A DNA stretch of 57,546 bases from NCBI GenBank assembly GCA_045540515.1, contig JAZQHJ010000078.1:1-57546 (forward strand). Reading direction: 5' to 3'. The DNA comes from Eubacteriales bacterium. Lineage in GTDB: Bacteria > Bacillota > Clostridia > Oscillospirales > CAG-272. The notes under the pieces were generated by a model, which was not told the DNA's origin, did no database searches, and was given only the letters and a program-made list of their open reading frames with translations. Made by a program: the position numbers and the translations under genes. Each line of letters begins with the position of its first letter. Position 1 is the stretch's first letter. Positions 1 to 47,701 of this stretch are shown here, piece by piece.

Positions 1-133
1 CACCGCCAACATCTATATCAGCTATAGCCTGTGGCATCTGTGACACCTTATATTTATCTGTTGTGCCTGTCTTTGCTCTGATAGCGTCAGCGATAGCTTG
101 AATATCTGTTTCTTCATATCGTTTTAATGACAT
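1..133 (-). CDS. Virion-region hypothetical protein, N-terminal 44 aa only (gene runs off the window)
   Basis: ATG at 133-131 overlaps the stop of the fibre gene (ATGA). My translation is MSLKRYEETDIQAIADAIRAKTGTTDKYKVSQMPQAIADIDVGG, with no stop before position 1. Confidence 0.5.
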   Translation of the reverse strand, partial: MSLKRYEETDIQAIADAIRAKTGTTDKYKVSQMPQAIADIDVGG

Positions 134-2151
134 CAGTACTCAACCTCGCTTCCGTCAGGTATCATATCAACTACAAGGTCAGCGATTTCTTGCTTGTCGG
201 TGTCGGTTAGGGTATACTCAGTAGATAGCTTTTTCCACTCATATGTACTTGGAACGCCAGTTTCTGGACTATTGTGTTGGATTTTTGTGCACACATATAA
301 ACTGTCAAATTTTCCGTGTGGAAAGTGTGCTATAACCTCACTTGCTTTGCCAAACGTTAATTCTGTAATTTCATCATCATAAACAGGTCTTGCACGATGG
401 ATTTCATTATAAAACAACTTAGCACTTGGGACTTGTTCGTCATAACCACCTGCGTCTACATATGTGACAATATTAGATGTATCGACTTTTGCGTTTAACG
501 ATGTTTGTATTGCGTCAAATTTTCTATATAACACATTATTTTGGACTGCGTTATAAGAATATGGGGCTAAATAACTGTCATATTTATATTTCTGGCTACT
601 TGTTTTATCCACTAAATCATAGAACAATTCTTGTTTTGAATATACCGCATACAAAGTTAGATGTTTATGCTCTGTATGAGCAACATCTAAATATTCTTCG
701 TATTTAGCAAAAAAAACGAAATCACCGTTATACCCCTCGCTCAATACAATCATATAAGGGAAATTTACTTTAAAATCATCATACTCGTAAATTTCATCTT
801 CAGTCGAAAATTCTAAAACTTCAAAACCTAAAGCATTTGAAAGTTCCTCAGCTGTAATATCTTCCGATAGTTCTTTATCTGCGATTTTTCGTGTTATTGG
901 TACATAACCGCTTAAATCAACATCACCATTACCAGACGGTGCTATCTCCACCCATTTATAAGTGCCATCGGTTTGTTTGCCCAGACACAAATATAGACCT
1001 GTAAACTTAGTGTTATCTCCGACACAAACTAACTGTCTGTATTCGCCAACATTATTAGATGTAGGTGGATTAAAAAGAGTCCCTATAGTGCTGACTTCCA
1101 AAGCACCTTTTAATTCATCTGCTGTTATGTTGTTTTTCAACTTTAATTCCGCAAGCGTGGTATTGTCTTTGAGATAATCAGTTAAGCAAAGCCAAAAGTA
1201 ATTCGCATAGCCGTTTTCAGTTACTTGTTTTCCATAACAAACATAGAGTGCTTTGTCTTTAGAAATAAGCCAAAAGTCACCCACTTCTGCCAAAGTTTCT
1301 AAATCGTTAGTTGGCGGTAAGGTCGAGTGTATAACGATTTTTCCTTTAACATCAAGTGCGGTTTTGAGCTTCTCTGCCGTAACGTCATCAGCCAAACTAA
1401 TGCCTGCTATGGTTCTTATCGTTGGTACATAATTTGATAAATCTATGTCACTACCAGTAACAATCGGTATCCACTTATATGTGCCATTAGACTGTTTTCC
1501 TAAACATAAATATAACGCCGTTATCTGTGACCCATCACTAACACCCAAAAGCTGTCTATAGTCTCCTATTGTGCTTGGTGTCGGAGCTTTAGGAAGCAAC
1601 CCTATACCATAAACTTGTAAAGCACCTCTAAGCTCCTCTGCCGTAATGTTGTCAGTTAAATCAACACCTGCAATATTTCGTGATACGGGTACATAATATT
1701 GAGCTAACGCCCCCAGCGCTACGTCTGAGTTTAAAATATCCTCTTCGTTGTATATTGTTTTCATTACAAGAATATTAAACTCAGCTGAAGCAATTTTATG
1801 ATCTACAGTTTCGCCGTCAACAACCTCAACAGACGAAATAACAAACTGACACTCGACCTTACCTTCCACTGCTGTTGTCTGTTTGTGATTGTCGCTATCG
1901 CCATTATCTTTGTCTAAATCATATATAGCTATGTTTTTGTTCTCGTCCACGTCACAGGTACAATTCAAAAAAGTACCATCGGGCTTTGTTGCGGTAAAAG
2001 CAACATTACACTCAGACAAAATATAAGGCACACCATTTTGTGTAAATGACACTTGAATTATTCTCTTTGTATCACCACGAAACATTGGTATTTGAATTTG
2101 AGATCCGTGTTTGTTTAAATCTAAACTAATTTTTATAATTGATGGGTTCAA
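133..2151 (-). CDS. Tail fibre / receptor-binding protein with a BppU-like N-terminal domain and internal ~88-aa repeats
   Basis: 672-aa ORF at the end of the late operon, TTG start with GGGGG 9 nt upstream. The N-terminus (MNPSIIKISLDLNKHGSQIQIPMFRGDTKR...) resembles baseplate upper protein N-domains. It contains repeated YVPxxRxIAGxxLxxxITAEELxxAL fibre-type motifs. Confidence 0.65.
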   Translation of the reverse strand: MNPSIIKISLDLNKHGSQIQIPMFRGDTKRIIQVSFTQNGVPYILSECNVAFTATKPDGTFLNCTCDVDENKNIAIYDLDKDNGDSDNHKQTTAVEGKVECQFVISSVEVVDGETVDHKIASAEFNILVMKTIYNEEDILNSDVALGALAQYYVPVSRNIAGVDLTDNITAEELRGALQVYGIGLLPKAPTPSTIGDYRQLLGVSDGSQITALYLCLGKQSNGTYKWIPIVTGSDIDLSNYVPTIRTIAGISLADDVTAEKLKTALDVKGKIVIHSTLPPTNDLETLAEVGDFWLISKDKALYVCYGKQVTENGYANYFWLCLTDYLKDNTTLAELKLKNNITADELKGALEVSTIGTLFNPPTSNNVGEYRQLVCVGDNTKFTGLYLCLGKQTDGTYKWVEIAPSGNGDVDLSGYVPITRKIADKELSEDITAEELSNALGFEVLEFSTEDEIYEYDDFKVNFPYMIVLSEGYNGDFVFFAKYEEYLDVAHTEHKHLTLYAVYSKQELFYDLVDKTSSQKYKYDSYLAPYSYNAVQNNVLYRKFDAIQTSLNAKVDTSNIVTYVDAGGYDEQVPSAKLFYNEIHRARPVYDDEITELTFGKASEVIAHFPHGKFDSLYVCTKIQHNSPETGVPSTYEWKKLSTEYTLTDTDKQEIADLVVDMIPDGSEVEY
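826..1695 (-). repeat. Three and a third tandem ~88-aa protein repeats inside the fibre gene
   Basis: Residues 153-240, 241-330, 331-415 and 416-442 each start with YVP(V/T/I)xR..IA...L..(D/N)(I/V)TA(E/D)(E/K)L..AL. The first and third also share Y(R)QL..V.D....T.LYLCLGKQ..GTYKW. Confidence 0.75.
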
Positions 2152-2176
2152 AAAAACGCCCCCTTGTTAGCTTTTA

Positions 2177-2220
2177 ATTTAATGGTAGCACACCTTTTTA
2201 GATATCCACACCCACCCCAA
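2177..2220 (-). promoter_or_regulatory. Copy A of a 44-nt bipartite element TTGGGGTGGGTGTGGA-N11-GTGTKCTACMATTAAAT (minus-strand reading)
   Basis: The 16-mer is identical to 23208-23223 and the second box matches 15/17 at identical spacing. It lies just downstream of a minus-strand terminator and 25 nt upstream of the fibre start. Confidence 0.5.
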
Positions 2221-2227
2221 AAAGACA

Positions 2228-2262
2228 TAAAAAAACAGCGCACACTCCGTAGAATGTACGCT
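2228..2262 (-). terminator. Putative intrinsic terminator on the minus strand
   Basis: Minus-strand RNA reads AGCGTACA-ttctacggag-TGTGCGCT (8 bp, one G-U) followed by GTTTTTTTAT. Confidence 0.45.
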
Positions 2263-2313
2263 ATCAATACGTTATTTACTTGTATTTGCTTCCAGTAGGT
2301 TTTTAATATTTTA

Positions 2314-2342
2314 TTGACAAAAATTTTTAATAAAAGTAGAAT
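2314..2342 (+). promoter_or_regulatory. SigA-type promoter for the plus-strand moron
   Basis: TTGACA (2314-2319), 17-nt spacer, TAGAAT (2337-2342); RBS GAGGTGG at 2349-2355. Confidence 0.6.
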
Positions 2343-2359
2343 GTTGTTGAGGTGGTTGT

Positions 2360-2653
2360 ATGAAATTTTTTAAAGAACATAAATTTGACTTTATATTTAA
2401 TATATGTTTTATTGTCTTTTTATTTCTTAACTGGTTTGCTGGCGATATCGTTAAGAAAATTATTAGTTTTTTAATAAGCTTTATTGGAGCTATAATAATA
2501 GTTGCAATTCTTGCTTATACTTTACATAATTTGACCAAAAGCAAAACCTTCAATAAAATATTCGAAAAATTAAACATCTCATATATAACTCGTGTTACAG
2601 TGTTTTTCTCTATAGCTATAGCGATATACACTTGTTTAAATGTTTTTATATAA
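2360..2653 (+). CDS. Small membrane protein (about 3 TM segments), moron inside the late operon
   Basis: 97-aa hydrophobic ORF on the opposite strand to all neighbours, with its own promoter, RBS and terminator. Confidence 0.65.
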   Translation: MKFFKEHKFDFIFNICFIVFLFLNWFAGDIVKKIISFLISFIGAIIIVAILAYTLHNLTKSKTFNKIFEKLNISYITRVTVFFSIAIAIYTCLNVFI

Positions 2654-2660
2654 ACAATTA

Positions 2661-2697
2661 CCCCTACGGAACAATTATGAACCGTAGGGGTTTTTTT
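2661..2697. terminator. Bidirectional intrinsic terminator shared by the moron (+) and the giant gene (-)
   Basis: CCCCTACGG (2661-2669) pairs with CCGTAGGGG (2682-2690), followed by T7 on the plus strand. It sits directly after both stop codons. Confidence 0.75.
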
Positions 2698-5600
2698 ATT
2701 TGCGAGACTCTGCCTGCTTTTCTCTATCTTGCTTTTCTAAATAGCCTTCTCGCCAACCTTGACAAAGTTTATCTATATCAGCAAGTTTGCTCCACAAGCC
2801 TGTTGAATATAATACTCTTTTGATTTGATTTGCCTTGTTAGCGTTTTTCTCAACAAATAGATAGTTAAGGTACACATCTTTATAATAGTTACCAAAAGAG
2901 CTCTTGACAGAAGAAATCGCTTTTTTCTTAGCTTCTTCCTTTGTATAACCTTGTATATAATACTCATCGTATTTTTCCTGCACTATTTCATCAACTATAA
3001 GCTGAGTTTCTGTAGTGTTACCCTTCTCATACGCTGTATTATATCTATTAATATTTTGAGAAATTGAACGATTTGTTCCTGCTTCAAACTTCAGAAAGTC
3101 ACCGTTAGCAATATCAACATACCAATAGTACAAGCCTGTAGCAATTTTTTCGACATTAGTAAGAGGAATACCCGTAAGCTGACATACCGATTTTGCTAAA
3201 TTATTAAAATTCTCTAAATTAGGTTCTCCTGAAAAATCAACTATGCTATCTGCTATTTCGGCGAACGTCTCTACTCCGTTTAATGACATACCATAATAGT
3301 AATCTTTACCATCGCCAAACCACTTGTTCCATAATACTTTGCTCAGAGAATACATATCAGAACCTAAGAACACACAGCCAACTATAGTATCTATAAGGTT
3401 ATCGAGTAATGTTAAAGATACGCTTTCTGCTGTTAGCTCATCATCATCGTCTCTGTATCCATTAAGACTGTGCATTAGGATGTCAGATAAAGCTTTCATA
3501 GCAACGATAGTAACCGCTGCTACCGCCTGACTGCTAACGGCTCTGTTAAGATCTATTTTGGCATCTTTGACATCTTGCACTGTTACTTCGTTCTTGCCTG
3601 ATTTATAGTCTTTCAACATTTTATTATATTTACCTACAGAACGATAAACTATGTTGAAATTCTGCAAACGCTGTGTCATAAACATAGTCATAGTCTTTAA
3701 TAATGAGTTTGGATTTCTTAACAAATCAGGTCTTTGCATAGTGGCGTAATTAGGCTGAGTGCGTTCAACTATATTGTTAAACACCTTTGCAACTTCCTCA
3801 TAATATGTGTCTGTTCCTTTTTTAAGGTCAGTCTTGTTATCTTGCACATAATATTCAGCAGCATACCAGAGCCTGCCGACAGTTGCACCATCAACAGCCT
3901 GTATCCAGCCAAGCAACCAACGCATTTTCTTTTCTGCTACAATACGCTTACTGCGCTCGCTTTTGAGGTCGCCAATCTCAGTTGTTGAATATCCCTGCAT
4001 ACGCTTATATAACAGTGGACTCCACTTTGCTATAAGTTCCTTATCTGCACGACTAATAACGCTACCGTTTTTTCCGCCCTTAGCAAGGGCCTTAATTAGT
4101 GGTTTCCAACCTATCTCTGCTGCTGCTGTTGGATATGATGCTGCCTGAGCGATAGCAACTCTAAGGTTTACCGACAAAGTTGCATGTGCCAAGCTTCCAC
4201 GTGCTTTATCCAATGTTTTGGATATAAAATCTGTAGAGCCTTTACGGCCTGCTGTCAAATCAGTTAAAAGATCATCAATATAGTTAGTAGCAATTTTTGA
4301 AAACTTCAAACTTAACTCTCGCTGTACAGAGGTTTCAAAACCTGCTTTTGTTGTTCCGTATACTTTTTGGAAGTTTTTGATCGGGATAGTCATACCACAA
4401 TATGTTGACACTCTATCAATATAAGTGGTAATTACATCTGTGATATCCTCAAGTAAAATAGGGTTACTTGCTCCCATGGTACGACTCTTCATCATTCCAG
4501 AATTTTCAAGCGACAAATCTCTAACTATATTTTCGAAACTTGCAGCCCTATAGTTCGAATCGGTATGAATTGGATAATAGTTTTTAACTGTTGCTTTTGC
4601 GTAGCCATACAATTTGTATGTTGTATCGTTGAGTTCTCTTTTAGTTACTGTATCAAAGAAATAATGTGCAGTAGAAAGCCACTGCTTTTCATACTCTGTC
4701 AGCTGAGATTCTATAGCGCCTCTCAAACCCGATATATACTGTTCGCCCTGAGATTTTGCATTTTCAAGCTTAGTTTTTACATCATCTATTTTATTTTGAA
4801 TATCTTTTGTTTTCTTAGGATCATCCTTAGCCTCTTCTAATTCATCCTCTAACTCAGAAAGCTGATGATTCAACTTTGAGGTTAAAAGTGAAATGCCACG
4901 TGCCGACTCCTGCTTAGTGCCAAATGCCTTATCCATATCGCCCTTGTAATAAGAAGCAATATCAGGAACAGTCAAACCGCCTCTTTGAATATGATTAGCA
5001 TTCTGCTGATTAGTCAAGTGCATATACAGCGACAACATCATACCTCTTGTTATCTGTATTTTATTGCCCTCATCATCTGACAAACCTATGTCTACCAACT
5101 CTTTTGTATTTATGAGTGTTTTTAAGCTTTTTCTGTCTGCAAGCAACTCATCAAACAACTGATAAAATTCCATTTCCATTCTTGTGGTCTTGAGCTGACC
5201 ATCGTTTAGCATACGATACAATTTAGAAGAATTAGAGTCTTTTTTGAAACCAGCAATCGTATCAAAAAACGACTCCGGACTCGTCATCATAGTTAGATAC
5301 TTGTCCAATAAAGAATCATGAGATTTTGGAATATCTCTTATTTCTTGTATTAGAGTACGACCAAACTCGTGTGTTGACTGCTTATACTCAGTATCAGTTA
5401 ATTTTACTGACTCACACACAACTGTATCAAGAGCCTTGAGTGTATCATAAGTATACTGCAACTGTCTAAATGACATATTAGTTATAGATGTGTTACCAAG
5501 TATGTCTGTCAAATGCAACATCATATTTGAAACAGTATCATCATACGCTGCATAATAAGAGGCATCGTTTTTCATAGCATCATAAACTGTACGCAATGAA

Positions 5601-8600
5601 GCAATTTTTTCTGTGAGTTTTTCACTTCTTCCAGAATCGAGATTAATAGCATTAAGCACATCTATAGTCTGACTCACAAGCTCTCTTGGTACATATTTAT
5701 TCTGAGTAGGGTGCAACAAACGAGACTTAAAAGAATCGGTAAGCTTTCTGATCTTACCTCTGAGCTCGGTCTTGTTTCTACGCTCGGTGAGATTTTTTCG
5801 CTCTTGCTTATGCTTTTCTACAAGCTTGTCGTACTTTTTCTTTTCAGCCTCTTGAACCTTGCGTCTTGTCTCTGCCTTTGCTTTCTTGACTTTTTCGTTG
5901 TGCTCTCTATGCAGTTTTCTGACAAGAGTATCTACATATCCGTTTTTACGATTATTGTACTTTTTCTCAACTACATCAGCTATCAAACGGCCAGTTAACT
6001 CTCCTGCCAGGTTGTTTTGCGATTTGCCAAACGCATACTCCACACCAGCATCCTGTGGATGATAAATTCTGTCAACCTTTTCTAAGAAAGTCTCCCAATT
6101 ATCTACAGCATCAGAATCTTCCGCACTAAACACCTGTGGAAACTCTTGAGCTAAATCGTAATAAAAAGTAGCAAAATCAACCTTGCGAGATTTGGTATCG
6201 CTGTTCTTTTTGACAACGTTAAGTTTGCCAAACAACTGATTTTTCAGCCACCCAACAGAACGACCTTGAAACTCAAGCGAGGACACCTGATCATCAGTCA
6301 GATAAACAGAATTTTTCTTTCTAAAGTCATTCAAATACTCTGATAAATCTTCTTTGAGTGCAATATCATCCTCAGTAGCAAAGGTAGTGTTTTTAATTAC
6401 CTTTTCAAATGTAGAACTGATAAGCTCCATATTTGCTTTTACATCTGATATATTTTTGCTATCAAGTAAAGACAACAGAGCAATAGAGATATCCTTGTTG
6501 TTTGAACTATCGAGATTATACGACTTGACAAGTTTTGATACAATGCGATTCAAGGCACTATCTGATAATTCTGTTTTACGTGTGTTATTAATCAGATGGT
6601 TAACAGTCAAGGCATCGCCTGTTATGTACTGACCGATAAGATATGCGTCATTGTCTGTCAACTCGCTGTACTCGTCATCAAACAGAAAATCATCTATACT
6701 CGGACGAGGTTGGTATTTTGTTTCACCATCAAAGTCCAGGCGAGTTTGGTAGAGCTTTTCACCTATTTGATTATATGCGGATAAGTATGTTTCAGTTTCT
6801 GTATTACTTCCTGTTCGTTCTGTGAACTGTTTAGTATATCCGTAAGATTTGAAAGAGTCTGGTAATAATGCTCTTTCCCCTGTGTCTTTGCGTCCCTTGT
6901 GATAGCTAAAATCTGCCGACTCGTAGTTTCTAACAAATTGGCTTCCGATAATATTCTCAGAAAGTTGTAAGCCGTATGAGTACTCGGATTTATTTCTCTT
7001 GTGGTCTTCTTGCTCATAGTAAATAATCTCCTTATATATTTCCGCTTCTGTTTCATTATTGGCGTTTATTACCAACACATTATGTATGATTGGAGCCTCG
7101 AATGGTCCGCTAATTAAAACCAACTTATTGTTAACTTCAACCACTCGTGTTCCATCGCCTAAAACATTATCTGTTTTCTGACGAGTTCTTGTATTAAGCT
7201 CGTTAAACTTTTCTTGTAACAGCTTATGCTCTTCATCAGTAAACAATCCGCTTGCCCATCCACGATTATTATACACCTTAAGCTCATTATCATCAAGGGT
7301 ATTTAGGTCAATATCAGTATATCTGCGAGAATATCGGAACTCCTGTATGCTAGAAACATAAGGCTCTGTACCATCAGCAAAATACTGTCTTATATCATTT
7401 ATGATTTTGCTTGTTTTTGTGCCTGACGGATATTCGACACTAACTTTCGTGTTACCTTGCAAATCATCTATATCAAGTAATATTTCTCCGTTAGCACGAG
7501 TAATATAGTCACTCAAAGCTGATTCCTGTGCTTTTGTTGGTGCAACAGAAAGATTTATACCATCTGATTCAGGCATAATTCTGATATTGCCCTGTTGCAT
7601 AAAGTGTACCATTGCCTCAGAACCACTTTCAAACTGTTCTTGGTCTTCTTCAGAAAAGCCGTCCCATATTTCTCTATGGTCTATTGTGCGATATCTTGCA
7701 TTAGAGCCAAACTTTCTGCCTGAAAAATCGAGTTTTCTGCCATCCGTCAATAGATATCCTGTTTCTTTCCAACTATATGTAGTTCCAAAGTGTTCTACCG
7801 TATCAGCAATAAGTCTTTGAGAAGATTTTTTTGAATTACTGTTGCTTTTTTCGGTGGAATCGGGTATAATACTTGTAGAGACATCATCTGTTGGCGACAA
7901 GCCTGAGTTTTCATTAACTCCGCCCGCCCTTTCAGTGGTGTCTTCTTTTTTTATATCAAAAACAAACTGCGTACCATCAGGCAATACTAACCTGTGCATT
8001 TTGTAATAATTATTATCTGCCATCCTCACTACAACAGCAACATTACCTCGTGTACCATTTATTGACACAGGTCCAGCAAAAGTCACAGTATTATATAGTC
8101 TATTTTTGTGGTTACTATGCTCGCCAATTTTTATACCTTTCATAATAATTTGCGGAACAGTAGCAAATGCAATTATTTCATTTTCGTTCTTAAGATATCT
8201 AAATCCATTTTTAATACGCTTAGAATCAAGTATCACATTACCAAACCCACTACGATTAATAATATCACCGTATTCTTCAAGTTGTTCAACAGCCCAGTCT
8301 CTCGCCTCTTGTTTAGTAGTGAATTCAAAATCCGAATTCACCCAGGCTACTATGTCCATATTATTTAGTAAATCTATATTTTCAATAATTTGCTCTCTAA
8401 GAGAACTGCTGTTTTCTCTTGAAAAATGCTTCACACCGTCCTCTGTGGCGGTGTTTTTTGTTTGTGATTTACCTGTAACTGTATCAGCGTTTTTACTTGC
8501 GTTTATGATACCCTGTGACCACTTGTCCATAATATCACTTAGTGTATCTGACATCTGGCTTACTATCTTGCTTTCTTCTGAATCTGCCGATAGTCTGCTA

Positions 8601-11600
8601 TATATCTCTTTTACCTTTGCTAAAAGGTCAGACAATAACTTCTTTATCTTCTGAGCAAGGCTTTTGTTTGTTTCAGACAGCTTTTCTACCTGCTGTGTCA
8701 GATTACCGTCAGCTAAGAAGCGTTCACAACTATCTGCTATAACTTCCTCAAACGCTTCGTTATAACTGAGTTTCTGTGACTGCATCCTGTCTTTAACAAG
8801 CTCATCCACATCAACGCCATGCTTTATGTACTCAGATACAAGAAAATCTGAAAAAGCTTTAAAATCTTCAGGTGAGTTCTTTGCGAAATAATGTGTTAGC
8901 TCGTGTGCCGCAGTAAACAGAATTGTACCCTTGCCGTTCATACCAGCATTAACGTCTATGTACATTGTGTTGGTATCTCGGTCAAACTGACCGTTTACTT
9001 CACCATATTTTGATGTAAAGCCACTCTTGGTCTTTGCTGAACGCTTAGATTCAAAGAATACAACATTATACCCAAGTTTATCCGCAAGATATGTAACAAC
9101 AGCTACACCCACTTGCTGACGTGCTGTGAGCTGTGATTTATCAAAGCCCTCAAACTTAACCTTGCTCTTTGTCTTGTAGTTGCTGTTATTAAGCTTTGAT
9201 TTTGCTTTTTGTACCTCTGCTTCGCGCAATGCCTGACCCACATCATAGTAGCTCTGCATTACACTTTGTGGCAACCCGTATGCTGTTAATTTACTATTAT
9301 CAGAAATATAGCCTTTTGCTAACGCTGACTTAACGTCAGATATATACTCTCCTGCTGTACCAAAGCTCTCGTGATATCCATTAAAAATAGAATTAGCTAT
9401 ATATGGACTTAGTTCTACCCCCATATAATTTTGAATATCTACTACGCCCTGATACAACACAGCAGAGTCTTTGTTACCAAGACTAAGCTCTTTTACAGAT
9501 TTAGTGCTACCGTCTGCCAGTTCTACAACAACATCATTTTTAGTAACACTTTTTATATCACCAACCTCAACAGCCTGTGCCGTGTCTGCTATATAGGTTT
9601 TGCCGTCATCGGACTGTGTGTAGTCTTCTATATCAATTTCTGTATCAGATGATTTCTCGACATTAGTGTTGTCAAGATATCTTTTGGTCTTATAAGTGTT
9701 ATGTATTCCCTCGAGCTGCTTTTCTGCCGCTCTGTTTAATATCACATCTGAACTATTGCGTATTGTTTTAAGCACCGCCTGAGCTTGTTCGGTATTTATT
9801 AGAGCGTTTTCTTTTTTGCTCAGCTTATCACCATTAAGTTCAGAATATACAGCGTCTACAGTTGCGTCTAAACTCTCGGTAACACCTAACCCGACTAACT
9901 CTTCTCGTATTGCTTCCTTTGTAGCTATGCTCTCTGCTCCAAAAACGAGGTCTGCGTTTCTTTCTTGTAATAATGAATACAGTTTGCCGACCTGTTTATT
10001 AAATCGCTTAGAAGCTAAATCTGAGGACTTTGTAGCCCCCGTGCTTTTTATCTTTTTAGCAAGTCCTATAATTTCTGCGTTTTCAGAGGTATTTGGCAAA
10101 CTCAATGCACTATCTACCAAAGCGTTAACGTTATTTGCCTCTGTTATATTCGCACCATATTTTTTGTTTTGTCGGTTTTGCTTTATTTCTGCGGATAAAG
10201 AAGGTGCATTAACAACAGCAGCTGAGCCACTACCTGCTACTAATCCTCCCATACCAGCTTCATATATTCGTGAAACCACCGCAAGAGCTAAAGCTACATT
10301 AGCAGACCACCCTTTTTCTAACATATAGACTTGAGCTTGTTGTGCTACATCAGATTTATCGCCTCTTAAAACCACATCAGCTGAGATGTTTACTATTTCT
10401 GTGCATATTTCTTCATAACCTTCTACACGTGCTTGTTTTAATACTCTCGCCAAAAATTTAGAGCCTTTTTTTGTGAATAATTTTTCTAAACTAATTTGTT
10501 CAAACACATACTCTGCAGCAGCTGCAATAGTTGCCTCAGTTGCTATTGTGCCGATATTTTCACCCTGCTCATAAAGTTCTCTCGCTCTTGCACTACCAGC
10601 AGCCATACTCAATGCTCCTGCCGCAAAACGCGAACCGCTTTTAACATCTTTTGTTACAGCAACACCAAGCGCACCAGCAAACATAGAATCAGCACCAGAC
10701 ATTAACGCTTGATAAGTGTCACCAACACTAAACCCCAACAAGTTTGCTCCATCTGTTTTTTTATCTATGTTGGAAGCTGTTTTTTCTCTTACTTTTTGGC
10801 TATCTGCCAACATAATATTAGAATTATCATATGGGCTATAATCATCTGTTAACATCTCATAACCATCAGAAACTCCTGATACAACACCGCCAACTACACC
10901 TGTTGGAACCGAAGCTAAATTTGCCAATATTGGTTGTTCTATAGCCCTCTTTTCTGCTTTTTTCATGCGATTATCAAAATTTTTCTTGTTAGTAATAATC
11001 GACATGTTCTCTAAGTATGAATCTGCCGCCTCTTTGCCCTCAGTGTTCAGAACGTAATAATACTTTGATACTTCTTCAGGTTCTAATAATGACCAGTTAT
11101 TTTTATCACCACTCAGTATTATGTTTTTATATGTATCTACGTTTTCACCCGAAATATATGTATTGGTTAATAAGTGTTCTTTTTCTTCATCTGTTAATCC
11201 GGTATAAAACGCATAAGAGTCAGTTACAACAGGTTGTGTATGTCTCTGATAATAAGTATCATCTAAAACATCGCCAAACGCATCTACATAATAAACGTTA
11301 CCATTACTATCATATTTTTCAGTAAATCCGTTGTCTATTCGTGTAGAGTAATCATTTATTTCCTGAAAACTTGGATTCACAAACTTTCTTTGCTTAGAAA
11401 CAACATCATAATCATCATTAGTTTCAATATTATAGTAATCATCGTATGTTTTTAAGCCACTTCGTTCATATAAATTTCTTATGGTTTCAAGTTCGTTTAT
11501 TCTGTTGTCTAAGCCGCTTGTTCCTGATGCACGTTTGTTTTTTAGCCCTTCGATTTCAGTAACTATTGCACTATAAGCATCTTTTCTGTTATCAACATTT

Positions 11601-12373
11601 CTTTTGTCAGTCCCATTATCGTTAAGAAAATTATACTTATAGTCTGACAGTTTAGTAATAGTTGCATCATATCTGTCAATGTTCTCAGTTTTTCCTCTAC
11701 GATTTGCACCGGCTTTATAACTTTCCAGACGTTTGATATCATCATCTATCTGCTTTGAGGTAACTGTTTTTGCATCATAGTTAGAAATATGCTTATATGC
11801 TTCAAGCTCACCAAAAGTACTGCTGTTTTTAGAAACTTTCAAAGGATTATTTAGCGTTGCACCTGGTACACTTAATGTTTTACCTTTTAATGTCTGAGTT
11901 TTGTGTAATTCTTTTTCATCTACATACTCAACGTATGGTGTACCAAAATCTTTTAATCCCTTTGAAGCTAATTCTATATAAGCATTTGCTACCTTGTTTG
12001 AACTGTCATCATAAGAATCAAGATACGACATCATTTGTGTATAAGGCTCTTTGCCAATATTGTTCTTATTAGCATTATAGTAAGCCTTTATCAAATTACA
12101 TCTGTTGTCTAAGTCACTTTTTTCTGCTAAAACACTTTTCTTTGCAACATCTTTGCCACTATAGCCAACATTACTATATTCACGCGATGCATTATTCAAA
12201 AACTGCTGAGAATCTGTAACAAAGCGTTTTATATAATTATCGCTTACATTAACGGTATATTTCTCTGCATTTTTCTTTATATCACTTGCAGATTTTTTAG
12301 ATTTATTGTTGTTACTAAAAATATATTTTCCGTTTCTTGCTTCTTGTAATATTTCTTCTGCAGTTTTAGCCAT
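2696..12373 (-). CDS. Giant 3225-aa composite virion-module protein (candidate ejected polyvalent / tape-measure-like protein) with an HExxH metallopeptidase-like module
   Basis: Uninterrupted 9678-nt ORF with ATG at 12373 and AAGGAG 9 nt upstream, in the late operon. It contains a Gly/Ala-rich hydrophobic segment (residues ~483-735), AAHELTHY at residues 1155-1162, and Lys/Glu coiled coils (~2150-2215 and ~2495-2555). Confidence 0.85.
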   Translation of the reverse strand: MAKTAEEILQEARNGKYIFSNNNKSKKSASDIKKNAEKYTVNVSDNYIKRFVTDSQQFLNNASREYSNVGYSGKDVAKKSVLAEKSDLDNRCNLIKAYYNANKNNIGKEPYTQMMSYLDSYDDSSNKVANAYIELASKGLKDFGTPYVEYVDEKELHKTQTLKGKTLSVPGATLNNPLKVSKNSSTFGELEAYKHISNYDAKTVTSKQIDDDIKRLESYKAGANRRGKTENIDRYDATITKLSDYKYNFLNDNGTDKRNVDNRKDAYSAIVTEIEGLKNKRASGTSGLDNRINELETIRNLYERSGLKTYDDYYNIETNDDYDVVSKQRKFVNPSFQEINDYSTRIDNGFTEKYDSNGNVYYVDAFGDVLDDTYYQRHTQPVVTDSYAFYTGLTDEEKEHLLTNTYISGENVDTYKNIILSGDKNNWSLLEPEEVSKYYYVLNTEGKEAADSYLENMSIITNKKNFDNRMKKAEKRAIEQPILANLASVPTGVVGGVVSGVSDGYEMLTDDYSPYDNSNIMLADSQKVREKTASNIDKKTDGANLLGFSVGDTYQALMSGADSMFAGALGVAVTKDVKSGSRFAAGALSMAAGSARARELYEQGENIGTIATEATIAAAAEYVFEQISLEKLFTKKGSKFLARVLKQARVEGYEEICTEIVNISADVVLRGDKSDVAQQAQVYMLEKGWSANVALALAVVSRIYEAGMGGLVAGSGSAAVVNAPSLSAEIKQNRQNKKYGANITEANNVNALVDSALSLPNTSENAEIIGLAKKIKSTGATKSSDLASKRFNKQVGKLYSLLQERNADLVFGAESIATKEAIREELVGLGVTESLDATVDAVYSELNGDKLSKKENALINTEQAQAVLKTIRNSSDVILNRAAEKQLEGIHNTYKTKRYLDNTNVEKSSDTEIDIEDYTQSDDGKTYIADTAQAVEVGDIKSVTKNDVVVELADGSTKSVKELSLGNKDSAVLYQGVVDIQNYMGVELSPYIANSIFNGYHESFGTAGEYISDVKSALAKGYISDNSKLTAYGLPQSVMQSYYDVGQALREAEVQKAKSKLNNSNYKTKSKVKFEGFDKSQLTARQQVGVAVVTYLADKLGYNVVFFESKRSAKTKSGFTSKYGEVNGQFDRDTNTMYIDVNAGMNGKGTILFTAAHELTHYFAKNSPEDFKAFSDFLVSEYIKHGVDVDELVKDRMQSQKLSYNEAFEEVIADSCERFLADGNLTQQVEKLSETNKSLAQKIKKLLSDLLAKVKEIYSRLSADSEESKIVSQMSDTLSDIMDKWSQGIINASKNADTVTGKSQTKNTATEDGVKHFSRENSSSLREQIIENIDLLNNMDIVAWVNSDFEFTTKQEARDWAVEQLEEYGDIINRSGFGNVILDSKRIKNGFRYLKNENEIIAFATVPQIIMKGIKIGEHSNHKNRLYNTVTFAGPVSINGTRGNVAVVVRMADNNYYKMHRLVLPDGTQFVFDIKKEDTTERAGGVNENSGLSPTDDVSTSIIPDSTEKSNSNSKKSSQRLIADTVEHFGTTYSWKETGYLLTDGRKLDFSGRKFGSNARYRTIDHREIWDGFSEEDQEQFESGSEAMVHFMQQGNIRIMPESDGINLSVAPTKAQESALSDYITRANGEILLDIDDLQGNTKVSVEYPSGTKTSKIINDIRQYFADGTEPYVSSIQEFRYSRRYTDIDLNTLDDNELKVYNNRGWASGLFTDEEHKLLQEKFNELNTRTRQKTDNVLGDGTRVVEVNNKLVLISGPFEAPIIHNVLVINANNETEAEIYKEIIYYEQEDHKRNKSEYSYGLQLSENIIGSQFVRNYESADFSYHKGRKDTGERALLPDSFKSYGYTKQFTERTGSNTETETYLSAYNQIGEKLYQTRLDFDGETKYQPRPSIDDFLFDDEYSELTDNDAYLIGQYITGDALTVNHLINNTRKTELSDSALNRIVSKLVKSYNLDSSNNKDISIALLSLLDSKNISDVKANMELISSTFEKVIKNTTFATEDDIALKEDLSEYLNDFRKKNSVYLTDDQVSSLEFQGRSVGWLKNQLFGKLNVVKKNSDTKSRKVDFATFYYDLAQEFPQVFSAEDSDAVDNWETFLEKVDRIYHPQDAGVEYAFGKSQNNLAGELTGRLIADVVEKKYNNRKNGYVDTLVRKLHREHNEKVKKAKAETRRKVQEAEKKKYDKLVEKHKQERKNLTERRNKTELRGKIRKLTDSFKSRLLHPTQNKYVPRELVSQTIDVLNAINLDSGRSEKLTEKIASLRTVYDAMKNDASYYAAYDDTVSNMMLHLTDILGNTSITNMSFRQLQYTYDTLKALDTVVCESVKLTDTEYKQSTHEFGRTLIQEIRDIPKSHDSLLDKYLTMMTSPESFFDTIAGFKKDSNSSKLYRMLNDGQLKTTRMEMEFYQLFDELLADRKSLKTLINTKELVDIGLSDDEGNKIQITRGMMLSLYMHLTNQQNANHIQRGGLTVPDIASYYKGDMDKAFGTKQESARGISLLTSKLNHQLSELEDELEEAKDDPKKTKDIQNKIDDVKTKLENAKSQGEQYISGLRGAIESQLTEYEKQWLSTAHYFFDTVTKRELNDTTYKLYGYAKATVKNYYPIHTDSNYRAASFENIVRDLSLENSGMMKSRTMGASNPILLEDITDVITTYIDRVSTYCGMTIPIKNFQKVYGTTKAGFETSVQRELSLKFSKIATNYIDDLLTDLTAGRKGSTDFISKTLDKARGSLAHATLSVNLRVAIAQAASYPTAAAEIGWKPLIKALAKGGKNGSVISRADKELIAKWSPLLYKRMQGYSTTEIGDLKSERSKRIVAEKKMRWLLGWIQAVDGATVGRLWYAAEYYVQDNKTDLKKGTDTYYEEVAKVFNNIVERTQPNYATMQRPDLLRNPNSLLKTMTMFMTQRLQNFNIVYRSVGKYNKMLKDYKSGKNEVTVQDVKDAKIDLNRAVSSQAVAAVTIVAMKALSDILMHSLNGYRDDDDELTAESVSLTLLDNLIDTIVGCVFLGSDMYSLSKVLWNKWFGDGKDYYYGMSLNGVETFAEIADSIVDFSGEPNLENFNNLAKSVCQLTGIPLTNVEKIATGLYYWYVDIANGDFLKFEAGTNRSISQNINRYNTAYEKGNTTETQLIVDEIVQEKYDEYYIQGYTKEEAKKKAISSVKSSFGNYYKDVYLNYLFVEKNANKANQIKRVLYSTGLWSKLADIDKLCQGWREGYLEKQDREKQAESRK
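8891..8905 (-). other. HExxH motif (H1157-E-L-T-H1161) of the giant protein
   Basis: The reverse complement of atgtgttagctcgtg is CAC GAG CTA ACA CAT. Protein context: GKGTILFTAAHELTHYFAKNSPEDF ... EEVIADSCERF. Confidence 0.7.
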
Positions 12374-12386
12374 ACATTAACTCTCC

Positions 12387-13337
12387 TTATATTAATCCTT
12401 TTGCCCACATAACATATGCCTTTTGTCCCTCAGACAAGTTTGATTTGTCTAAATGTGTCATTATGCTATTTTTATCGTCTGTTCGTATACTCGCTAAAAA
12501 ACGTCTTACCGCTTCATCATCGGCATATTGCGACACATCTGTTCTATCTGATGAACCCGATGCATCCGATGAGCCTGATGAGCTCTTATTGTTCAGTGCC
12601 GCATAATTATAGGCCATTTGTGAATTAAACTGGTCTTCCGCTACTGCTTGTTCGTATGCAGCCTGATTAAAGTTTTGTGCATTATAATAATTGTTCCAGT
12701 CAAGAGAATTAGCATTATATCTATTGCTCTCGTTTTGTGCCCAAACATCCTGATTAAGACCACGTAAAGTAGTGAGGTCATTGTATGCATAATCTCTGTC
12801 ACTCTGCCAATCTGAAACCTTGTCTCTGTACTTGCTATAATCAAGTGCGTCCTGATTCTGATACATACCAAGCTGATTATATAACTCTGCACCCTCGTCC
12901 TTATATTTTGAGTATGCATTTTGATATAGCTCAGGCACAACATTATTAAGTTCAGATAAATAATTCTGATACGCCTGATTACCAACCGCTGTAGCGTAAC
13001 TGTTTCCATAGCCGCCAGTAAGTGCCGAAGCTTGTCCTATTGTGTCCTGCATAGCCATTTTTCCCAATCCTGTATATTGGTCTTTATACTGCTGATACAA
13101 AGCGTCTGCGTTAACATCGTAAGAAAAAGGCTTTCTGTTAGCTATAGAATTTATTGTATTGTCTATCTGACTTTGATAAGCCGACTGATACGCAGAAGGT
13201 TTACTTGCCAACTGTTGCTTTAAAGTGTTTTGAGCTTGTGCTATCTGAGACGCATATGCTCCTTGTTTTTCGTCATATTCTTTTGGCTTATATACAGTTG
13301 ACGGCATATTATAATTTATTGTTTTATATGTAGCCAT
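12387..13337 (-). CDS. Q/N/Y-rich 316-aa virion-region protein of unknown function
   Basis: ORF in the late operon with TAATG coupling upstream. Low-complexity composition (AYQSAYQSQ, YNANSLDWNNYYNAQNFNQAAYEQ) and a Ser-rich tract. Confidence 0.6.
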   Translation of the reverse strand: MATYKTINYNMPSTVYKPKEYDEKQGAYASQIAQAQNTLKQQLASKPSAYQSAYQSQIDNTINSIANRKPFSYDVNADALYQQYKDQYTGLGKMAMQDTIGQASALTGGYGNSYATAVGNQAYQNYLSELNNVVPELYQNAYSKYKDEGAELYNQLGMYQNQDALDYSKYRDKVSDWQSDRDYAYNDLTTLRGLNQDVWAQNESNRYNANSLDWNNYYNAQNFNQAAYEQAVAEDQFNSQMAYNYAALNNKSSSGSSDASGSSDRTDVSQYADDEAVRRFLASIRTDDKNSIMTHLDKSNLSEGQKAYVMWAKGLI

Positions 13338-13471
13338 TATTTTCGGTCTCCTTTATCTAAAATAGAAACGATATAGTTAAGTTGTTGTGATAATTGAAAC
13401 AGATAATCGTTAATCTGTTTAATCTGTTCTTTTATTGTTAACCCTTTAATATTTGGTGGTTTAATAAGCAT
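13337..13471 (-). CDS. 44-aa ORF translationally coupled to both neighbours (below the 60-aa cutoff of the ORF track)
   Basis: My translation is MLIKPPNIKGLTIKEQIKQINDYLFQLSQQLNYIVSILDKGDRK. Its ATG overlaps the stop of the 781-aa gene (TAATG) and its TAA overlaps the ATG of the 316-aa gene (TAATG). Confidence 0.45.
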   Translation of the reverse strand: MLIKPPNIKGLTIKEQIKQINDYLFQLSQQLNYIVSILDKGDRK

Positions 13472-15816
13472 TAAATGTCGCTCCCTTGCTCTAAAGTCTT
13501 AGATATCGAATATATCTTCACATCTCCTACACCCTCTATGCGTAGTTTGAAGTGATCACAGCGTTTAGGTCTAATAGACTGAGTTATAGTTTTCAACTTT
13601 TCACCCATTAAAGTAACCTTGTGCTCCCATATACCATTAGAATCGTACTGAATATATATTGACACTTTAGCTCCAAGTTCCATGCTGAGTCGTACTGAAA
13701 TACGAGTAATATACTTCTTATCAGCATACGAAAGCCCCATCTCGCCAGTCTCTATATACCACTCAACATTCTTCTCTTTAACCCCGCCTGTACCAAACAA
13801 AGAATATAATGTGCCATCTTCTATATAATAAATATCATTATCCACAGAGCACATCTGAGCAATATTTAATTCATCCTCTTTGTGCCACAAGCTATACTGT
13901 GTATCAAGCACAAACAATTTTCTTTTTGCCGTTTCTACATTTATCATTGAAATGTAATATTTGTTCTTATATGCGCATGCTATAGCATCTGTGTACATCT
14001 TATTTCCAAGAGCATGTGATACACAGTTTGGCAATGAACCTGAATACGCCATGACTCCCGCACGAGATTTATAATATAAAACCTCGTTTATAAGAGCCAA
14101 ACTGTTTTCGCTACCTTTTTGTACTCCTCTGCACGCAGTATCATTAATTTGATACTGTGCCGGATAATTACCATAAACCATATGCATATAGTTTTCCTTA
14201 AAAAATAGCGGATAACCTTGATATGATATTGCGCCGGTAAAAACTCCATCAGTACCGAGTGACGCGACATAGCTGTCTGTAGATACTCCCTCAAAACAAT
14301 TCCAGTTCTTAAAATCTCCCAGTTTGCTCGCATATATCTCGTTGACTGTTTCTCCGTTTGCGTTTGTGCCGTATCTACAACCCCACAGCCTATTTTTGCT
14401 TTCTATTACAAAATCCATCTCTGGCATTGTTCTACTTAAAGTGATAGCCTCATCTTGCATATATTGTGATTCTATTGTCGGACAGATTTTATCTCCCTCT
14501 TTTACGGTTAACCCCCAACTTAAAGTTAAGTTTGTATAATATCTATCTGTTAAATATTCTTCAGCCTTATATATCATCAATCCAGGGGTATAATTAACTT
14601 CTTTTGATAAAATTACGTAGTAATTATTTTCATCAACACCAATGCTTTCAATTCTGTTTACTTCCCCATTAATCAAAACTAAAGTAGCAGCATTAATATA
14701 GTTTCTAATGTCTGCGTAAGACCCTGTTCCACCAACAAATAGTTTTTTAGTTGTTACATTAACACCGTTGGCAGTCGTAGCATATAAACTGCTGAAAGCA
14801 TCACAAAAACCTGTACTGCTGTTTCTATACTCTATACTTTGATTAGGTGCTGTGTTAGCTATTGCATAAGCCACTTGATTTCCAATATGTATATACTTGC
14901 CTGCAAGCGCATTTTCTTCAAAATCAGAGTCACAATAAGCGGGCAAATTTCCACCATCTTCAACCGTTCTACTATCTACAGCTTCAAGCACAAAATTACT
15001 TTCCATAGTACTTATCAGTCCTGTAACTATAATCGAATCATCGTCTGGTATGCTCTTTATAACAGTAGTAGCATTTAGATCCTGTATGTTTATATTTACA
15101 ACACCGCTTATCTTGATTCCGTCTCCTTCTTTAAAACATGTACCAATACCCTTAGCACCTATTTTTACCAACGTCGAAGTAAAACCATACCACGAAGAAT
15201 TAGAAGCAATATAATATTTGAGCGAAGCTGGAGAAACTGACGTGTCTAACCATACATAATCATCAGCAACATTCACAGGTTCTTTATCTCCTACATAATT
15301 TATTGAATACACTTCACCGTTTGAGCGACACGCTTGTAACGTTACTTTTTCTTCTGACGTGAAATTTTGCTCTATATATCCATAATCGTTCCAATTGTCG
15401 TCAGTATCGTTTATGATACTCATAGTATTAACATACTGTTTATCTGGCAAAATAATCAAATATGCGCCCATAGGGATAATTTGTCTTTTTACCTTACTGT
15501 CATATTCAGTTGTTTTTAAACTCTTATTAAAACCTATACCTGTAAGCGTATCGTAAGCATATATATGTAAGTAGTTATCAGTCACTGTCACATAATAAAA
15601 CACAGACTTATATATCATACCTTGTACATTGCTTGATCGTATCGGTGCTACGCCTCGTTTTGCTCGTGGTGATAATACTGGGTACAAAGATGAAGACATG
15701 TTTTTCATGTCATAAAATTCATTATCTTTAATCCTCAAGTTATGATTATATCCACCAAAAATATCTATCATATCTCGAGAAGAATTGTTTTTTGCGTTAA
15801 CTGTTGGGTAAATCAT
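13471..15816 (-). CDS. 781-aa virion protein (tail/adaptor candidate), function unknown
   Basis: Large ORF between the head genes and the giant gene. It has beta-rich repeated Y/G patterns and no motif I can name. Confidence 0.6.
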   Translation of the reverse strand: MIYPTVNAKNNSSRDMIDIFGGYNHNLRIKDNEFYDMKNMSSSLYPVLSPRAKRGVAPIRSSNVQGMIYKSVFYYVTVTDNYLHIYAYDTLTGIGFNKSLKTTEYDSKVKRQIIPMGAYLIILPDKQYVNTMSIINDTDDNWNDYGYIEQNFTSEEKVTLQACRSNGEVYSINYVGDKEPVNVADDYVWLDTSVSPASLKYYIASNSSWYGFTSTLVKIGAKGIGTCFKEGDGIKISGVVNINIQDLNATTVIKSIPDDDSIIVTGLISTMESNFVLEAVDSRTVEDGGNLPAYCDSDFEENALAGKYIHIGNQVAYAIANTAPNQSIEYRNSSTGFCDAFSSLYATTANGVNVTTKKLFVGGTGSYADIRNYINAATLVLINGEVNRIESIGVDENNYYVILSKEVNYTPGLMIYKAEEYLTDRYYTNLTLSWGLTVKEGDKICPTIESQYMQDEAITLSRTMPEMDFVIESKNRLWGCRYGTNANGETVNEIYASKLGDFKNWNCFEGVSTDSYVASLGTDGVFTGAISYQGYPLFFKENYMHMVYGNYPAQYQINDTACRGVQKGSENSLALINEVLYYKSRAGVMAYSGSLPNCVSHALGNKMYTDAIACAYKNKYYISMINVETAKRKLFVLDTQYSLWHKEDELNIAQMCSVDNDIYYIEDGTLYSLFGTGGVKEKNVEWYIETGEMGLSYADKKYITRISVRLSMELGAKVSIYIQYDSNGIWEHKVTLMGEKLKTITQSIRPKRCDHFKLRIEGVGDVKIYSISKTLEQGSDI

Positions 15817-17800: not shown

Positions 17801-17852
17801 TTTGTTTTTTCTCCTTTGTTTTTTAATTGTGTTCAAGGAGAAAAAGTAACCT

Positions 17853-18856: not shown

Positions 18857-19204
18857 CTATTGTGCGCTACCAACATCAATAAGATTTACATAATCAGAAA
18901 AAGTCTCTGATAAGAGGTAATATCCTGTCTTTATGGTCATTAACGAGTTATACACAAGCGTGTAATACTCTTTTTTAGGTTTGCACGAAACCGATGCAAA
19001 GCCGTCACGAAGCTTTATTTTTGGTTTATTCACTAAAAAGCCTTGTTCTGACATACTCTTAATTGTCTGTACAAGCGTCAGAGCAAGAATAGATGCCGAT
19101 GCGCATATAATATCCTCGCCTTTTTTTGCTGATTTAGCATGTCCGGTTACAGTCACGCTGAGTGTGTCTTTTAATTGATTTTCGTTATATTTTACCGTTA
19201 TCAT
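18857..19204 (-). CDS. prp: Prp-family cysteine protease (ribosomal-processing protease homologue)
   Basis: 115 aa with VTGHAKSAKKGEDIICASASIL, matching the conserved GHA...G.D.(V/I)CA.(V/A)S His/Cys signature of Prp/YsxB. Confidence 0.8.
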   Translation of the reverse strand: MITVKYNENQLKDTLSVTVTGHAKSAKKGEDIICASASILALTLVQTIKSMSEQGFLVNKPKIKLRDGFASVSCKPKKEYYTLVYNSLMTIKTGYYLLSETFSDYVNLIDVGSAQ

Positions 19205-33966: not shown

Positions 33967-34036
33967 TAAATAATAACATCTCTCTTTTAAGGTGTCAATA
34001 GCATTTTGCAACTTTTTTTATTTTTTTTACAAATAT

Positions 34037-34054
34037 TGTTGCATTTGTTGCATT
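34037..34054. repeat. Tandem 9-nt direct repeat TTGTTGCAT x2 (operator half-sites)
   Basis: Directly visible; each unit contains the GTTGC half-site. Lies 30 nt upstream of the repressor ATG. Confidence 0.6.
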
Positions 34055-34083
34055 ATTATGTTATTCTTTATTGGGTGATATTT

Positions 34084-35133: not shown

Positions 35134-35267
35134 AAAAACCGCCCTACCTGACTGGTCCTCAGATAGAGCGGCACATCACCACAGGGGGCAATGACACGAT
35201 ATTAGTGCAAGAAGATTGTATCATAAATCCCTGTGCCTTGCAATACAAAAAACAGGGGGGTATTTTT

Positions 35268-47656: not shown

Positions 47657-47701
47657 TTTGTGATTATTACTTTGTATATTACCTAAGGAGGTATTTTGAA
47701 A

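Follow-up and report, generated by a model that had tools for sequence, protein, structure and literature searches.

A giant modular protein encoded among the virion genes of a podovirus-like prophage of gut Clostridia is a predicted polyvalent protein with a conserved C-terminal module

The DNA analyzed here (57,546 nucleotides [nt] of contig JAZQHJ010000078.1 of the Eubacteriales assembly GCA_045540515.1; hereafter the window) contains on its minus strand a single open reading frame (ORF) of 3,225 codons, with an ATG start and without interruption. It occupies 17% of the window, and its limits are those given in the first-pass annotation of this DNA. As the DNA has a G+C content of 37%, an open frame of such length cannot have a chance origin. 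The structural genes around it share its strand. They begin with terS and terL and continue with the P22-type portal, the Prp protease, the scaffold, the capsid, a 123-amino acid (aa) protein, a 781-aa protein, a 316-aa protein, the giant ORF, and a BppU_N tail protein (Table 1). Because a repressor and an integrase follow on the plus strand and host genes come after them, the element is a prophage in a Ruminococcus-like Clostridia chromosome. The first-pass reading of the product of the giant ORF (hereafter the giant) was that of a polyvalent protein of composite make-up, its gene lying among those of the virion. This proposal is upheld by an LPD3 domain, a conserved HExxH motif, the shuffling of domains among relatives, and the gene context, each of which is examined below.

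The giant gene is preceded by a Shine–Dalgarno sequence GGAGAG (12381-12386, minus strand), placed 7 nt 5′ of the ATG and abutting the stop codon with which the gene of the 316-aa protein ends. The giant gene is thus translationally coupled to that gene, and a promoter specific to it was not found. A search for DNA tandem repeats within the giant gene found none.

Relatives of the giant are numerous. A search of 5.8 billion proteins yields 1,050, most of them with 3,200–3,400 aa, and the 93 complete relatives from independent genomes and viral contigs range from 1,859 to 3,791 aa (median 3,286). They are found in 58 species-representative genomes, mostly of Oscillospiraceae, Faecalibacterium, Lachnospiraceae, and Ruminococcaceae, and also in cultured isolates, namely Faecalibacterium langellae CNCM I-4541, F. 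prausnitzii APC923/61-1, Pseudoflavonifractor phocaeensis, Papillibacter cinnamivorans DSM 12816, and Clostridium sp. AF37-5. A further 281 viral contigs of IMG/VR contain a relative, and because these are often of 38–43 kb, the giant gene amounts to about a quarter of a typical phage genome. Three such contigs from different samples (L085, L095, and L104) have an identical length of 42,414 bp, which suggests complete genomes with defined ends. Five relatives (L004, L008, L022, L043, and L058) come from contigs that binning assigned to Bacteroidales, Paludibacteraceae, Muribaculaceae, Prevotellaceae, or Barnesiella, and these are either mis-binned phage contigs or a real spread beyond Firmicutes. 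One of them, L004, on a phage-sized contig of 43.6 kb, is the closest full-length relative. The closest relative has at most 42% identity with the giant, even within the C-terminal module.

The family is also catalogued among phage proteins, as PHROG 22978 (3,513 positions, unknown function), an entry without annotation. This profile matches the whole protein with E = 2e-67 and is collinear with residues 422–830 and 1934–2995, its positions 242–665 corresponding to the Gly/Ala-rich region of the giant; the middle of the profile has no match to the middle region of the giant. A second entry, PHROG 28077, also matches the C-terminal module.

The mapping of 119 database relatives on the giant reveals a very uneven conservation. 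The C-terminal module of about 1,000 residues is universal and closes all 119 proteins, as it closes all 94 complete giants. Residues 1525–1683 are common to most relatives, the stretch from the HExxH motif to LPD3 is found in about a quarter, the Gly/Ala-rich residues 430–830 in few, and residues 1–430 in none. An alignment of ten C-terminal modules (A1) contains the motifs NYYPI.TD, LEN.GF.KERV, N..V.I.QAAS.PTA, W...D..T...W, TQPNY..MQRPD, and YRDDD.E.T. Judging from these alignments, this is the family-defining and most conserved module of the protein, and the C-terminus of ~650 residues that had been left unassigned is only a part of it. The AlphaFold 2 (AF2) model of the module is almost entirely helical, with a mean predicted local distance difference test (pLDDT) of 66.9 and a predicted template modeling score (pTM) of 0.61. 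Searches of the PDB by phmmer, sequence profile, and Foldseek find no sequence or fold match (best Foldseek E 0.5). Among the predicted viral structures of BFVD there are 57 matches at E ≤ 1e-3 (best E = 1e-51, template modeling [TM] score 0.64), nearly all of which are the C-terminal end of some giant protein of a virus; the named ones include proteins annotated as PolyVal ADP-ribosyltransferase, nuclease, LPD-containing, MuF_C-containing, and similar.

Near its end, the module contains a hydrophobic helix, a loop YRDDDDELT, and a second hydrophobic helix. The 19-residue Kyte–Doolittle means of the two helices are 1.57 and 1.73 in the giant. In ten out of ten diverse members the first helix, just before the invariant YRDDD loop, has values of 1.4–2.25, and a second, weaker helix comes after the loop. 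This pattern suggests a candidate membrane-active hairpin.

In contrast with the C-terminus, the middle of these proteins is exchangeable. The precomputed Pfam labels among relatives are LPD3, ART-PolyVal, PBECR5, PBECR3, and MuF_C, and those checked on three relatives (P0003, P0025, and P0035) are confirmed, with the domains lying in the same middle slot. Module counts on the 94 complete giants, made with local profiles of each module and thus lower bounds, give at least 56 proteins with the metallopeptidase module, at least 23 with a domain here called module X, at least 18 with PBECR5, at least 16 with LPD3, at least 15 with MuF_C, at least 12 with ART, and at least 5 with PBECR3. These combine into 30 architectures, each with the C-terminal module at the end. 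The combination found in the window, LPD3 followed by modules X and Y, is unique among the 94. In the giant, the swappable middle holds four units, namely a metallopeptidase module of the zincin-like kind, LPD3, and modules X and Y.

The first of these units contains the motif HELTH (H1157, E1158, and H1161). An HExxH motif is present in 115 of 120 relatives; the main Faecalibacterium clade has it as HEDYH. Seventeen diverse sequences were aligned (A4). All of them have the Glu and the first His, 16 of the 17 have the second His, and a conserved motif (D/E)(E/D)xxA follows 45–65 residues downstream, on the next segment that is conserved, where the giant has E1209/E1210 within EEVIADSCERF (1209–1219). 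The zincin-like block with a candidate third ligand downstream that had been suggested is borne out at the level of motifs, and its profile matches are weak. Polyvalent proteins have been described as having zincin-like metallopeptidases with this arrangement, HExxH...E (PMC5512222), in which the HExxH lies on a helix and a Glu on a following helix is the third ligand; judged on motifs, the giant has both. The giant has a weak, subthreshold match to Peptidase_M78 (E = 0.0034), its relatives match weakly the putative metallopeptidase DUF6782 (three members, best 3.6e-5), M13, and DUF6055, and a PDB profile search with the HExxH region finds only IrrE, at E = 1.9. The module is best called zincin-like, a predicted assignment based on conserved catalytic motifs and not on a demonstrated fold.

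LPD3 is revealed by a Pfam scan of the protein in pieces of 450 residues (E = 5.1e-8, 33.5 bits against a curated cutoff of 27, positions 6–110 of the 114 of the model), whereas the scan of the whole protein misses it and gives nothing significant. It is also the precomputed Pfam label of the giant and of most relatives. The landmarks of the first-pass annotation are all found in their places: besides HELTH and EEVIADSCERF, these are NRSGF... (1373–1394), HSNHKNR (1419–1425), HFGTT... (1528–1556), and TIDHREIW (1563–1570). Of the two stretches that had been likened to accessory modules, residues ~1330–1470 are LPD3, and residues ~1525–1620 belong to a real and widespread domain, module X, which is, however, not named as an LPD in Pfam.

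Module X has no family in Pfam or NCBIfam, and ten short carriers of it lack any Pfam domain. With residues 1500–1700 as query, an exhaustive HMMER search (E ≤ 1e-3) finds it in no fewer than 1,805 protein clusters, formed at 50% identity, and mostly inside proteins of 2,000–3,500 aa. Among 28 diverse aligned sequences there are 22 invariant columns (FG.T, ETGY, LDFSG, R.VDHR, GNIR..PE, and others), most of them polar or charged. Within the same proteins, module X is ~52% identical to the one of the giant and the C-terminal module ~24%; because it is more conserved than its carrier, module X fits a strongly constrained functional cargo domain. The AF2 model is confident (pLDDT 92.3, pTM 0.84) and Foldseek finds no significant match to it in the PDB (best E = 0.11). 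Several PD-(D/E)xK nucleases are among the top matches, all faint (E ≥ 0.1, TM score ≤ 0.26), and such a nuclease may be taken as a weak lead from the model. A relationship with the T-fold or with 6-pyruvoyl-tetrahydropterin synthase was rejected, since the profile match to 1y13 (E = 0.0017) has no Foldseek backing; a comparison with Escherichia coli QueD gives an hhalign probability of 0.3%. In the relative L008 the giant contains two tandem copies of module X (residues ~1980–2445). Module Y has 19 homologs with 47–82% identity, several of them fused to ART-PolyVal, PBECR3, LPD3, or MuF_C, and no Pfam match.

The N-terminal part of the protein has few or no counterparts in relatives. Asn, Asp, and Tyr make up 21–34% of every 100-residue block in residues 1–500, in agreement with the N/D/Y/K-rich N-terminus previously described for residues 1–480, and residues 1–429 have no aligning relative among the 119 mapped and no Pfam or PHROG match. 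Residues 430–830 have BLAST matches to five proteins (P0002-4, P0025, and P0036) and about 12 loci. In this region, Gly and Ala amount to 21–25% across residues 501–800 and a single hydrophobic segment is found at 482–501; the Gly/Ala-rich, hydrophobic character attributed to residues ~483–735 is thus real, and the tape-measure relationship proposed along with it finds no support. The two K/E coiled coils that had been noticed correspond to K/E-rich stretches at 2101–2200 and 2501–2600, both of which are long helices in the AlphaFold model.

The gene context points to a short-tailed phage. The giant gene had been placed in the tail slot of a siphovirus. With a P22/SU10 portal and with no tube, sheath, chaperone, or tape-measure gene, either in the window or in the relative L001, the phage is instead podovirus-like. 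L001, of the Faecalibacterium clade, has the same gene order, followed by receptor-binding or fiber proteins, XkdX, an M15 endolysin, and holins. The giant gene lies between the capsid and internal-protein genes on one side and that of the tail protein on the other. This is the place of the genes for internal or ejection proteins in podoviruses, and the same context is found in relatives. In at least 21 related loci a homolog of the 316-aa gene immediately precedes the giant gene, and in L004 the pair has been relocated together to between the portal and capsid genes. The 316-aa protein matches PHROG 4949, an entry of unknown function, only weakly, and a comparison with the giant's N-terminus shows that the two are not paralogs.

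Polyvalent proteins, as defined by Iyer, Burroughs, Anand, de Souza, and Aravind (2017; PMC5512222), are the class to which these traits lead, along with the notion of a metallopeptidase as their likely processing enzyme. The giant is multidomain, each of LPD3, the HExxH module, X, Y, and the C-terminal module having an independent set of homologs; effector-type ART, PBECR, and MuF_C domains are shuffled into the same slot in relatives; and the gene belongs to the virion gene block. By its domains and context, the giant is thus a predicted phage-type polyvalent protein in the sense of these authors. We consider it fairly probable that this polyvalent protein of a podovirus-like phage combines a conserved carrier with swappable cargo and is packaged in the virion and injected with the DNA. 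The proposed carrier consists of the C-terminal module and, in some members, of the Gly/Ala-rich region. Packaging and injection are suggested by the gene context and by the analogs gp47 of phage phi24B and gp50 of phage N4 (see below); with a putative proteolytic processing and effector activity, they would proceed as follows. The giant would be made late, with the head genes and the conserved 316-aa partner, and a few copies would enter the capsid through the C-terminal module, perhaps together with this partner. At infection they would exit via the portal and the short tail, before or along with the DNA, and the helical module, which includes the conserved hydrophobic helix, would help to bridge or breach the Gram-positive envelope. 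The metallopeptidase would then cut the polyprotein, and the freed cargo domains could act on host nucleic acids, proteins, or defenses in the first minutes of infection.

Several observations weigh against this scenario. The Pfam model of the polyvalent-protein metallopeptidase matches neither the HExxH region of the giant nor its relatives, and this region gives just weak matches to other metallopeptidase families. As true transmembrane segments, the hydrophobic helices would be borderline cases, and the carrier module lacks sequence or fold similarity to the solved ejection proteins, as to the rest of the PDB. An effector role for LPD3 and modules X and Y, which have no known activity, would be assigned by association only. 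The GenBank phage collection, i.e., annotated and cultured phages, contains no detectable homolog.

A more specific proposal can be advanced only tentatively, as possible but rather doubtful: the C-terminal module, with its hairpin and invariant YRDDD loop, and the 316-aa partner would form an unrecognized single-polypeptide ejectosome of Gram-positive podoviruses, unrelated to that of T7 or P22 and serving as universal carrier for exchangeable cargo, and module X would be a new enzyme of early takeover or anti-defense.

The main alternative, which we regard as unlikely, is a purely structural core or ejection protein, forming an envelope channel and a capsid core, in which LPD3, X, and Y are structural or DNA-binding elements, the HExxH module digests the wall or matures the protein, and there are no effectors. 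The large size and helical nature of the best-conserved module, and its hydrophobic helix, are consistent with this, as is the lack of a recognizable toxin or enzyme fold in the giant's own middle domains, and the authors working on phi24B proposed for gp47 a conduit with a peptidoglycan-degrading metallopeptidase domain (bioRxiv 10.64898/2026.04.10.717836). Yet in relatives the same slot holds clear enzymes (ADP-ribosyltransferase and BECR-fold RNases), architectures vary far beyond structural need, the invariant polar and charged columns of module X are typical of enzymes, and the zincin has no recognizable cell-wall-binding domain.

It is less probable still that the giant is not a virion protein at all. 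It would then be expressed late as a toxin or a factor in competition, set free by lysis or exposed on the cell, or else would provide the lysogen with exclusion or immunity. Polymorphic and swappable toxin-type domains are also typical of secreted bacterial toxins, and a moron-like membrane-protein gene lies directly downstream of the giant. However, there is no signal peptide and no secretion-system context, the gene is coupled within the head–tail operon with no promoter of its own found, its position and its 316-aa partner are conserved in about 140 loci, and an accessory gene of 10 kb would be hard to maintain in a phage genome of ~41 kb. A tape-measure protein, or an external tail fiber or needle, is very improbable. 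One could invoke the position between head genes and receptor-binding protein, the Gly/Ala-rich segment, and the long coiled-coil-like helices. Against this, the genes that accompany a tape measure are missing and the portal is of the P22/SU10 type; no tape-measure or fiber family matches in Pfam or PHROGs; the protein has polyvalent domains; and separate fiber proteins (BppU_N, Big_2/DUF6273, and Phage_fiber_rpt) are encoded 3′ of the giant. Finally, an assembly or annotation artifact fusing several genes, for which only the unusual length could speak and which the first-pass annotation had listed as a possibility, deserves practically no credit, because independent assemblies, those of isolates included, yielded the 93 complete relatives, which are of similar length, and because the modules are collinear with the PHROG 22978 profile.

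Other features of the locus deserve mention. The scaffold and capsid genes, which adjoin the Prp gene, have Prp-type cleavage motifs (canonical NLQ(I/L)F↓A) at the N-termini of their products, MSKIISLIPVNLQIF↓AEGS in the scaffold and MKKLLLNLLQLF↓AYDP in the capsid protein. The TTG listed as start of the capsid ORF probably lies too far 5′, and an ATG 12 codons further in (MKKLLL...) fits better. The giant itself was rejected as a substrate of the Prp protease: the motif [LIMV]Q[ILFYM]F[AGS] is found in 0 of 181 family members, against ~6.5 expected by chance. A unit of ~90 residues (NITAEELRGALQV..., DVTAEKLKTALDV..., and NITADELKGALEV..., then ...LYLCLGKQ..GTYKW) occurs at least three times in the BppU_N tail protein and is probably a receptor-binding or carbohydrate-binding domain. 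The gap of 545 nt between the giant and tail-protein genes contains an opposite-strand ORF (2360-2653, plus strand) for 97 aa with three hydrophobic helices, preceded by a near-consensus promoter TTGACA-17-TAGAAT (2314-2342), and a terminator-like hairpin on the minus strand (2265-2234), 3′ of the giant. This ORF looks like a moron in the late operon, perhaps for a membrane or exclusion protein expressed in the lysogen. In the early region, a DUF3799 PDDEXK-like protein (29715-30485, minus strand, E = 5e-73) is probably a recombination exonuclease. Beyond the integrase (36.4–57.5 kb), the host genes include those for an SPFH/Band-7 protein, a 7TM-LuxR regulator, a dockerin type I protein, and an aspartyl-tRNA synthetase with GatC, and G+C climbs from about 0.36–0.40 to about 0.44 near 47 kb. 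As the window contains no tRNA gene, the attachment site is not a tRNA gene within it.

Table 1. Features of the giant protein, of the surrounding prophage, and of the host flank (positions in the window; residues of the giant)
Feature	Nucleotides	Strand	Residues	Remark
Giant ORF	2696-12373	-	1-3225	stop codon included
N/D/Y/K-rich N-terminal region	11087-12373	-	1-429	unique to this protein
Gly/Ala-rich helical region	9884-11086	-	430-830	common to a minority of relatives
Zincin-like metallopeptidase module (predicted)	8591-9256	-	1040-1261	
HELTH motif	8891-8905	-	1157-1161	H1157, E1158, H1161
Candidate third ligand	8744-8749	-	E1209/E1210	within EEVIADSCERF
LPD3 (Pfam PF18798)	8009-8317	-	1353-1455	
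Module X	7295-7807	-	1523-1693	compact alpha/beta domain; FG.T..W.ETGY...LDFSG...R.VDHRDI...GNIRI.PE...
Module Y	6524-7306	-	1690-1950	second unnamed domain of the swappable middle
C-terminal all-helical module (~1,000 aa)	2984-5926	-	2150-3130	proposed carrier part
Hydrophobic helix, YRDDDDELT loop, second hydrophobic helix	3359-3541	-	2945-3005	loop 3431-3457; candidate hairpin
BppU_N tail protein	133-2151	-		672 aa
316-aa protein	12387-13337	-		Q/N/Y-rich, no transmembrane segment; immediate upstream partner of the giant
781-aa protein	13471-15816	-		matches PHROG 511 'internal virion protein'
123-aa protein	between capsid and 781-aa genes	-		
Major capsid protein	16547-17836	-		
Scaffold	17853-18797	-		
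Prp cysteine protease	18857-19204	-		
P22-type portal	19216-21186	-		P22/SU10-type
Large terminase	21190-22653	-		
Small terminase	22646-23218	-		
S24/HTH repressor	34006-34749	+		
Tyrosine integrase	35205-36314	+		
Dockerin type I protein	42026-43939			host flank
Aspartyl-tRNA synthetase	47696-49774			host flank; C-terminal GatC domain

Phages of this type, of ~40 kb, are common prophages in Faecalibacterium, Oscillospiraceae, Lachnospiraceae, and Ruminococcaceae, i.e., in dominant gut bacteria, and they spend about a quarter of their genome on one protein. The passage of short-tailed phages across the thick Gram-positive wall and the membrane is poorly understood, and the family is a concrete and testable candidate for a part in it. 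If the giants are injected, their exchangeable middle would be a ready catalogue of early-acting effectors, some of them possibly anti-defense, and the C-terminal module would be a handle to find such proteins and to engineer protein delivery. Module X, with its confident fold, strong conservation, and very wide distribution, and with no family name or structural relative, is a good target for biochemistry.

The ejection proteins of T7 (gp14, gp15, and gp16) and P22 (gp7, gp16, and gp20) are internal, largely helical, and thought to form a conduit across the envelope. Like the giant gene, their genes come after the head genes in a podovirus. They share no sequence or fold similarity with the giant in the PDB searches (phmmer, profile, and Foldseek), and the giant differs from them in being a single chain, roughly three times as large as T7 gp16, with swappable domains and a host with a Gram-positive envelope. 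An analogy in function is nonetheless possible. MuF-type polymorphic toxins have an N-terminal MuF head domain (SPP1 gp7-like) and a C-terminal toxin. This polarity is reversed in the giant, where the conserved module is C-terminal and Pfam finds no Phage_Mu_F; some relatives hold the MuF_C domain only.

The virion RNA polymerase of phage N4, gp50 (3,500 aa), is likewise of giant size, and it is injected from the podovirus capsid in which it is packaged; it has a zincin-like module and a C-terminal region needed for encapsidation (PMC5512222). An N4-like RNA polymerase was rejected for the giant, as no search finds such a module or similarity. Gp47 of the Stx phage phi24B (vb_24B_48; 2,811 aa) is closer in several respects, being a giant polyvalent protein encoded with the virion genes of a temperate podovirus. 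It is abundant in the virion proteome and invisible in cryo-electron microscopy maps, and it has been proposed to be an encapsidated ejection protein (bioRxiv 10.64898/2026.04.10.717836). In contrast with the giant, it has another domain set (LPD5, LPD1, MuF_C, and LPD38, as re-checked here) and a Gram-negative host. Homology of the carrier module with the C-terminus of gp47 was rejected (hhalign with A1, probability 0.4%), which adds to the points against the carrier-and-cargo scenario, and a tblastn search against phage records found no Stx phage. Hence, gp47 is an analog and not a homolog of the giant.

The nearest parallel by description is found in gut Clostridia. The prophages phi1 and phi4 of Clostridium clostridioforme LM41, of about 41 kb, are podovirus-like and spontaneously release particles, and each has an ORF of 8 kb, ~20% of the genome, with similarity to LPD3, which is the subject of one sentence of annotation without a domain map (PMC11318856). 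The likeness to the polyvalent proteins of Iyer et al. (PMC5512222) extends from the multidomain organization, the late virion genes, the LPD domain, the HExxH...E module, and the ART-PolyVal, PBECR, and MuF_C domains swapped among relatives to the same predicted logic of delivery with the DNA and processing by a metallopeptidase. The differences are that the C-terminal module and modules X and Y have no match in Pfam, where just a set of the domains of that paper is filed, and that the HExxH module falls outside the Pfam model of the polyvalent-protein metallopeptidase. In conclusion, the class is known, and a similar ORF has already been remarked in a related prophage of gut Clostridia (PMC11318856); the carrier module that is always C-terminal, its linkage with a partner gene, and the two widespread unnamed domains appear to be described here for the first time.

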